Origin: Escherichia coli
GTDB lineage: Bacteria > Pseudomonadota > Gammaproteobacteria > Enterobacterales > Enterobacteriaceae
Reading direction: 5' to 3' (one strand)
NCBI RefSeq assembly: GCF_001677475.2
Contig: NZ_CP015229.1
Length of the DNA: 64,000 nucleotides
The first letter of the stretch is position 1, and every line of letters begins with the position of its first letter. This document shows, one piece after another, positions 9,235 through 10,320 of this stretch. Below the pieces are notes generated by a model, which saw only the letters and a list, made by a program, of their open reading frames with translations, had not been told where the DNA came from and did no database searches. Both the position numbers and the translations under genes were made by a program.

Positions 9235-9250
9235 AGGCAAACGTTTACCT
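9235..9250. promoter_or_regulatory. PurR operator (PUR box) in the purR leader
   Basis: AGGCAAACGTTTACCT matches the 16-bp PUR box palindrome (ACGCAAACGTTTGCGT type). Confidence 0.7.
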
Positions 9251-9294
9251 TGCGATTTTGCAGGAGCTGAAGTTAGGGTCTGGAGTGAAATGGA

Positions 9295-10320
9295 ATGGCA
9301 ACAATAAAAGATGTAGCGAAACGAGCAAACGTTTCCACTACAACTGTGTCACACGTGATCAACAAAACACGTTTCGTCGCTGAAGAAACGCGCAACGCCG
9401 TGTGGGCAGCGATTAAAGAATTACACTACTCCCCTAGCGCGGTGGCGCGTAGCCTGAAGGTTAACCACACTAAGTCTATCGGTTTGCTGGCGACCAGCAG
9501 CGAAGCGGCCTATTTTGCCGAGATCATTGAAGCGGTTGAAAAAAATTGCTTCCAGAAAGGTTACACCCTGATTCTGGGCAATGCGTGGAACAATCTTGAG
9601 AAACAGCGGGCTTATCTCTCGATGATGGCGCAAAAACGCGTCGATGGTCTGCTGGTGATGTGTTCTGAGTACCCAGAGCCGTTGCTGGCGATGCTGGAAG
9701 AGTATCGCCATATCCCAATGGTGGTGATGGACTGGGGTGAAGCAAAAGCTGACTTCACCGATGCGGTCATTGATAACGCGTTCGAAGGCGGCTACATGGC
9801 CGGGCGTTATCTGATTGAACGCGGTCACCGCGAAATCGGCGTTATCCCTGGCCCGCTGGAACGTAACACCGGCGCAGGCCGCCTTGCCGGTTTTATGAAG
9901 GCGATGGAAGAAGCGATGATCAAGGTGCCGGAAAGCTGGATTGTACAGGGTGATTTTGAACCTGAATCCGGTTATCGCGCCATGCAGCAAATACTGTCGC
10001 AGCCGCATCGCCCTACTGCCGTCTTCTGTGGTGGCGATATCATGGCAATGGGCGCACTTTGTGCTGCTGATGAAATGGGTCTGCGCGTGCCGCAGGATGT
10101 TTCGCTGATCGGTTATGATAACGTGCGCAACGCCCGCTATTTTACGCCGGCGCTGACCACGATCCATCAGCCAAAAGATTCGCTGGGTGAAACAGCGTTC
10201 AACATGCTGTTGGATCGTATCGTCAACAAACGTGAAGAACCGCAATCCATTGAAGTGCATCCGCGGTTGATTGAACGCCGCTCCGTGGCTGACGGCCCGT
10301 TCCGCGACTATCGCCGTTAA
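9295..10320 (+). CDS. purR: Purine repressor (LacI family)
   Basis: 341 aa with N-terminal helix-turn-helix ([23 protein letters not shown]). Confidence 0.97.
9323..9338. promoter_or_regulatory. Second PurR operator, inside the purR coding region
   Basis: GAGCAAACGTTTCCAC, a PUR-box-like palindrome at codons 10-15. Confidence 0.65.

Follow-up and report, generated by a model that had tools for sequence, protein, structure and literature searches.

Two PurR operators at the start of the Escherichia coli purR gene: conservation of the sites and lineage restriction of the intragenic one

We are highly confident that the two PUR boxes on either side of the purR start codon are the operators of PurR self-repression, acting as a roadblock downstream of the promoter and providing a weak negative feedback, with an upstream operator (O1) that is ancestral and an intragenic operator (O2) that has arisen together with an asparagine at residue 12 of the repressor (Asn12). 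The purR operators as such are already known and have been characterised since 1990, and the preliminary description of this DNA had read them correctly. The main value of that part is that of a positive control, both operators having been placed to the base from the sequence, without the use of tools. What is new is that O2 is restricted to one lineage and coupled to Asn12.

Identity of the locus

The locus is purR, located between cydH (ynhF) and punR (ydhB) in the 64-kb stretch of E. coli DNA analysed here (further called the window); the gene is annotated in 5424 of the 5426 complete E. coli genomes. Its coding sequence (9295–10320, plus strand), comprising 341 codons plus a stop codon, is the sole long open reading frame at this place. 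The control region (8990–9400, 411 bp) is 100% identical to that of E. coli K-12 MG1655, so that published K-12 results can be directly applied to it; a position in the window corresponds to the MG1655 position minus 1,728,549. The purR allele differs from that of K-12 at 16 synonymous positions, all of them 3' of O2, and the encoded proteins are identical. The best E. coli match of this purR gene is 99.3%. A purR gene of only 93.9% identity, no nearer than that of E. whittamii, is found in the GTDB representative 'Escherichia coli strain SCPM-O-B-8794', which suggests that this genome is either mislabelled or a member of a cryptic clade.

Position, sequence and matrix scores of the two operators

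A PUR box is an imperfect palindrome of 16 bp that has a CpG at its centre and a AAACGTTT-type core; its consensus is ACGNAAACGTTTGCNT. O1 (AGGCAAACGTTTACCT, 9235–9250) is situated in the purR leader and ends 45 bp before the ATG at 9295, and O2 (GAGCAAACGTTTCCAC, 9323–9338) is a weaker PUR box inside the gene. Both 16-mers are found, exact to the base, where they had been placed, and the second indeed lies within the coding sequence: O2 extends from the second base of codon 10 (9323) to the second base of codon 15 (9338), covering residues R10-A11-N12-V13-S14-T15. Codons 11–14 (GCA AAC GTT TCC, 9325–9336, plus strand), whose synonymous positions are frozen as described below, encode the Ala-Asn-Val-Ser of the helix-turn-helix turn. 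Both sites have the form of a PUR box and contain exactly the same 10-bp core, GCAAACGTTT, which occurs only these two times in the window; 0.34 occurrences would be expected by chance, and at least two copies were present in 7 of 100 shuffles.

A PurR weight matrix was constructed from the 27 ChIP-chip sites for which a motif is listed (Cho et al. 2011, PMC3159470, Table 1), with purR excluded; the training sites range from 11.9 to 24.9 bits, and 127,970 positions were scored in the window. O1 reaches 21.16 bits, which is within the training range and ranks 1 of 127,970, and has three mismatches to a perfect palindrome. O2, with 11.24 bits (rank 8), is slightly under the weakest training site and is equalled or surpassed by five other distinct sites in the window. 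Its core is perfect and its outer positions are poor, the mismatches to the ideal palindrome ACGCAAACGTTTGCGT numbering five, and the site was not recovered by a palindrome search of the window at up to three mismatches; on the reverse strand it shows three mismatches to the ChIP consensus ACGNAAACGTTTGCNT. The claim that both sites match the PurR palindrome is thus supported for O1, and for O2 only with respect to the core. By matrix score alone, O2 is indistinguishable from chance and would be rejected rather than called, which is a caution for motif scanning. It is a weak site, and the case for it comes from its context, its conservation and the published footprint. A site scoring at least as high as O2 would fall by chance no more than 100 bp from O1 with a probability of about 0.02, and, given their conservation across 80 species (see below), the two sites together can be taken to be well beyond chance.

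The second-best match in the window, AGTAAATCGTTTGCGT at 40361–40376, is a strong PUR-box match with a score of 18.46 bits. It is located in the ydiJ-ydiK intergenic region (MG1655 1,768,894–1,768,909), 180 bp upstream of ydiK, and falls within a PurR ChIP-chip region that is given without a motif in Cho et al. 2011 (PMC3159470).

Published evidence for PurR binding at purR

The assignment of both sites to the known two-operator autoregulation of purR is corroborated by the sequence identity of this region to that of K-12, for which O1 and O2 have been published. In K-12, O1 is said to follow the transcription start and precede the ATG, with O2 in the coding region. PurR reportedly binds the two sites non-cooperatively, with an affinity for O1 that is about six-fold higher, and both sites are said to contribute to an autoregulation of two- to three-fold. 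Protection in vitro by purified PurR, and loss of regulation upon mutation of the sites, have reportedly been found as well. A further reference for the K-12 operators is Meng, Kilstrup & Nygaard 1990. According to its title, the paper in which O1 and O2 were described (Rolfes & Zalkin 1990, J Bacteriol 172:5758) found that purR autoregulation needs two sites, downstream of the promoter.

Occupancy by PurR is also seen in ChIP-chip data, since the region at purR has a log2 value of 1.99 with adenine and none without adenine (Table 1 in Cho et al. 2011, PMC3159470), and the motif given for this region, AGGTAAACGTTTGCCT, is the reverse complement of O1. A matrix scan combined with ChIP occupancy was the check put forward in the preliminary description; O1 scores very well and O2 marginally, and occupancy is present, with the two sites, 88 bp apart, not separated from each other. 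The same authors state, citing earlier work, that PurR is bound inside the open reading frames of purB and purR and blocks elongation, and also write that binding regions were seen in intergenic regions only (PMC3159470).

Conservation of the operators in Enterobacteriaceae

In a scan for PurR relatives, with each species represented by a single genome, the best 80 loci, all from Enterobacteriaceae, were taken for analysis; these have 92–100% protein identity and 82–94% nucleotide identity. O1 is present in all 80 species, 57–60 bp upstream of the ATG, with scores of 18.1–22.0 bits. In a column-by-column footprint it appears as a near-fully conserved island, as can be seen from the variable flanks on both sides (9207–9234 and 9251–9262). 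The core of O2, GCAAACGTTTCCAC, has been kept unaltered by 77 of the 80 species. Its second base, which is the third position of codon 10, is either A or C, and the GCGC variant, found in 42 species, raises the score of O2 to 13.6 bits. The distance between O1 and O2 varies from 85 to 88 bp across species; this drift in spacing argues against a need for helical phasing or looping and fits independent binding at the two sites.

Codons 11–14 show an exceptional lack of synonymous variation. Among those of the 80 species that keep the same residue, the codons used are GCA (99%), AAC (100%), GTT (99%) and TCC (99%), compared to a median entropy of 1.37 bits for the four-fold sites of purR, and no other of the 274 four-codon windows in the gene has a lower synonymous entropy. 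To take shared ancestry into account, a neighbour-joining tree was used to count Fitch parsimony events. The third positions of codons 11–14 underwent 1, 0, 1 and 1 events, respectively, against medians of 13 for two-fold and for six-fold codons and of 20 for four-fold codons; the total of three events, where about 66 are expected, is the lowest of 152 windows. This is a clean, small case of overlapping codes, in which an operator fixes four synonymous sites across a whole family.

The first 24 or so codons of purR have fewer synonymous events than later codons, and part of the freeze could therefore be a general effect of the 5' end. The third positions of codons 2, 5, 8, 16, 19 and 23 are likewise near-fixed in the 80 species. 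Codons 8, 16, 19 and 23 lie outside the PUR box, and the six-fold codon TCA of Ser19 (9349–9351) has undergone no events at all.

Residue 12 and the origin of O2

Other families of the Enterobacterales were reached by a protein search, of which the best 120 matches were considered; no PurR of Vibrionales or Pasteurellales was among them. Residue 12 is Asn in the 20 Enterobacteriaceae-type proteins, and Gly in 96 proteins with 79–85% identity. The latter originate from Erwiniaceae, Yersiniaceae, Morganellaceae, Hafniaceae and Pectobacteriaceae, and have the residue that is the norm in the LacI family. A Gly codon (GGN) is incompatible with the core GCAAACGTTT, and the AAC codon of Asn12 is required for O2. 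When the DNA of seven Gly12 species was scored, O2 was absent from all seven (−17.3 to +0.2 bits). The neighbouring residues are unchanged in these species, and they are encoded by various codons: GCG, GCA, GCT or GCC for Ala11, GTT, GTC, GTG or GTA for Val13, and TCC, TCT or TCA for Ser14. Since the codons for Ala11, Val13 and Ser14 vary where O2 is absent, the freeze is tied to the operator and not to a general demand on 5' coding sequence. The suggestion that the O2 codons are under dual constraint holds in these tests.

Two further lineages with Asn12, beyond the set of 80 species (90% and 80% protein identity), both have GCA AAC GTT TCC and an O2 of 13.6 bits, and the one with 80% identity retains both O1 and O2. 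A variant with Asp12 was set aside as uninformative, as it derives from a 1.6-kb contig with 0.41x coverage and has a divergent N-terminus.

Five of the seven Gly12 species have an O1-type site (AGGCAAACGATTAACA) of 12–17 bits at positions −60 to −62. In the other two, Providencia alcalifaciens and Serratia microhaemolytica, the site has decayed: the sequences at about −60 are AGGTAATTATTTAACT and CAACAATAAGTTAACA, respectively, without the central CG, and purR autoregulation may have been lost in these species. From this distribution, O1 appears to be ancestral in Enterobacterales, and O2 appears to be an innovation of the Enterobacteriaceae that required or accompanied the change from Gly12 to Asn.

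Asn12 and O2 co-occur in the sequence comparison, and an alternative order of events is that the residue changed first and the site was co-opted later. We put forward only tentatively, as a possibility to which we do not give preference, that the change from Gly to Asn in the DNA-binding turn of PurR, a two-base change (GGN to AAC) in the ancestor of the Enterobacteriaceae, was driven, or at least fixed, by selection for a second site of autoregulation. If true, regulatory DNA would have shaped a protein, and not only the reverse. The sister families provide a natural experiment with and without O2, an operator that is dependent on an unusual residue in the turn.

Promoter and leader region

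Two blocks conserved across Enterobacterales, TTCCCC (9103–9108) and CAAAAT (9126–9131), are the best candidate for a purR promoter, which would be a weak one. They are separated by a 17-nt spacer (9103–9131 in total, plus strand) and located about 100 bp upstream of O1. This putative promoter implies a transcription start near 9138–9140, relative to which O1 and O2 would have positions of roughly +96 and +184. A simple consensus scan identified no sigma-70 promoter at threshold between cydH and purR, and no matching coordinates or gene names were found for a purR transcription start in Cappable-seq and dRNA-seq supplements. O2 is necessarily transcribed, as it lies within the open reading frame. 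The position of both sites downstream of the promoter would follow from the title of the 1990 paper in combination with the candidate promoter.

The predicted leader of 156 nt folds no better than shuffled sequences (z = −0.18). Upstream of O1, a block of about 57 bp (9150–9206, TGCGTACTGGCCATTGACCCCTTCCTGACGCTCCGTGTCGTTTTTCCGGCG) is more than 90% conserved in the 80 species of Enterobacteriaceae and patchy in other families, and a weak terminator-like hairpin (9174–9188) plus a T-run can be found inside it. A structured leader RNA or attenuator was considered for this block and rejected on account of the fold score of the leader and the weakness of the hairpin. On the opposite strand, the Rfam family RF02081 (STnc550, 'Enterobacterial sRNA', a family of 388 nt) gives a full-length match of 396 bits at 8904–9294. 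This span consists of cydH/ynhF and the entire intergenic region, and is antisense to the purR leader and O1. No description of an STnc550 transcript was found in the literature searched, and this 'sRNA' is probably the cydH mRNA.

Proposed mechanism and alternative explanations

We propose that, when hypoxanthine or guanine is abundant, the corepressor-bound PurR dimer would bind to the strong O1 site and, at higher occupancy, also to the weaker O2 site in codons 10–15. Being bound downstream of the promoter, PurR would form a roadblock to elongating RNA polymerase rather than block initiation, and the outcome would be a modest negative feedback on PurR levels. With O2 in the DNA that encodes the helix-turn-helix turn of PurR itself, the same bases would serve both protein and operator, and the change from Gly12 (GGN) to Asn (AAC) would have completed the GCAAACGTTT core and given rise to O2 in the Enterobacteriaceae lineage. 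Binding of PurR, dependence on a corepressor, the requirement for two sites and the roadblock are taken from the literature, and are fully consistent with the computed results.

The sites are reported to be occupied by GalR as well. In ChIP-chip, GalR gives a peak with a score of 9.5 at ynhF/purR, which ChIP-qPCR has confirmed and for which the sequences of O1 and O2 are the inferred GalR operators, O2 overlapping the PurR operator (Qian et al. 2016, PMC5110547). When a GalR matrix for the GTGNAANCGNTTNCAC-type operator was made from 15 other sites of the same paper (training range 16.3–22.2 bits), O2 ranked first in the window with 13.36 bits and O1 ranked fifth with 11.83 bits, and the outer half GTGGAAAC of O2 is GalR-like. 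These observations could be taken to mean that GalR, and possibly GalS, uses the sites to the same extent as PurR, which would connect the regulation of galactose and purine genes, and that GalR contributes to or even dominates the constraint on O2. We consider this unlikely, as both scores are below the range of the GalR training sites, the other half of O2 has the PurR-type TTGC where GalR prefers TTAC, and GalR has little or no effect on purR expression (PMC5110547). A secondary contribution to the constraint by cross-occupancy of the paralog GalR is plausible. The opposite extreme, in which O1 alone autoregulates and O2 is a non-functional by-product of the codons for the Ala-Asn-Val-Ser turn, would agree with the matrix score of O2, under that of all training sites and equalled elsewhere in the window, with the fact that amino-acid identity fixes most of its bases, and with the inability of ChIP-chip to separate O2 from O1. 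It is nevertheless extremely improbable: the four synonymous core positions are near-invariant in the 80 species, although positions of this kind are otherwise saturated among them, the same residues have variable codons in lineages without O2, TCC and AAC run counter to the A/T-ending trend of the adjacent 5' codons, and the 1990 title speaks of two sites as required.

The freeze itself could also result from a constraint on the mRNA near the start codon, such as translation initiation, low 5' structure or a codon ramp, and the slow evolution of the first codons, including the near-invariance of six of them other than codons 11–14, is in agreement with this. We regard this explanation as very unlikely, since the least variable window coincides exactly with the PUR-box core, codons 3, 4, 6, 7, 9 and 10 do vary (7–12 events), the leader and start region fold like shuffled sequence, and codons 11, 13 and 14 vary freely in the Gly12 lineages, which have the same translational demands. 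A role for O1 and O2 in the control of the antisense cydH/STnc550 transcript, in addition to or instead of purR, can be conceived from the full-length minus-strand match mentioned above. A start at 9294 on the minus strand would put O2 at about −29 to −44, on the −35 element, and make O1 an internal roadblock. Such a role is equally hard to credit. The 5' end of STnc550 is the base before the purR ATG and looks more like the edge of an annotation than like a mapped start, the sole −10 candidate, TATTGT, is unconserved because codons 3–4 vary, and another promoter-like region is nearer, adjoining cydH. An antisense STnc550/cydH promoter over O2 was set aside on the basis of this coding-sequence boundary and unconserved −10 candidate, and no supporting literature was found for it. 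Self-repression of purR by PurR bound to O1 and O2 is the reading that we retain.

Comparison with known operators of the LacI family

The sites described here are the same elements as O1 and O2 of K-12 purR, in the same gene, at the same distances from the ATG and in an identical 411-bp sequence, the present allele differing only further into purR. A close parallel outside purR is the purB operator (He & Zalkin 1992), likewise a PUR box that is situated in coding sequence, downstream of the promoter, and acts by blocking elongation. The operator in purB, however, stands alone and far inside the gene, whereas the start codon of purR has a site on either side, and the product of purR is the repressor itself. 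LacI-family operators in coding DNA are also represented by lac O2 in lacZ and gal OI in galE, where a second operator is found about 90–400 bp away. These systems act through DNA looping, by the LacI tetramer or by GalR together with HU, in contrast to PurR, which is a dimer with reportedly non-cooperative binding and for which the spacing between O1 and O2 drifts by 1–3 bp. Finally, the PUR boxes of purF, purHD, purMN and further genes share with those of purR the same 16-bp motif and the same corepressor-dependent repressor, but they overlap the −35/−10 elements, block initiation and repress more strongly, whereas the purR sites are located downstream and provide a weak feedback.
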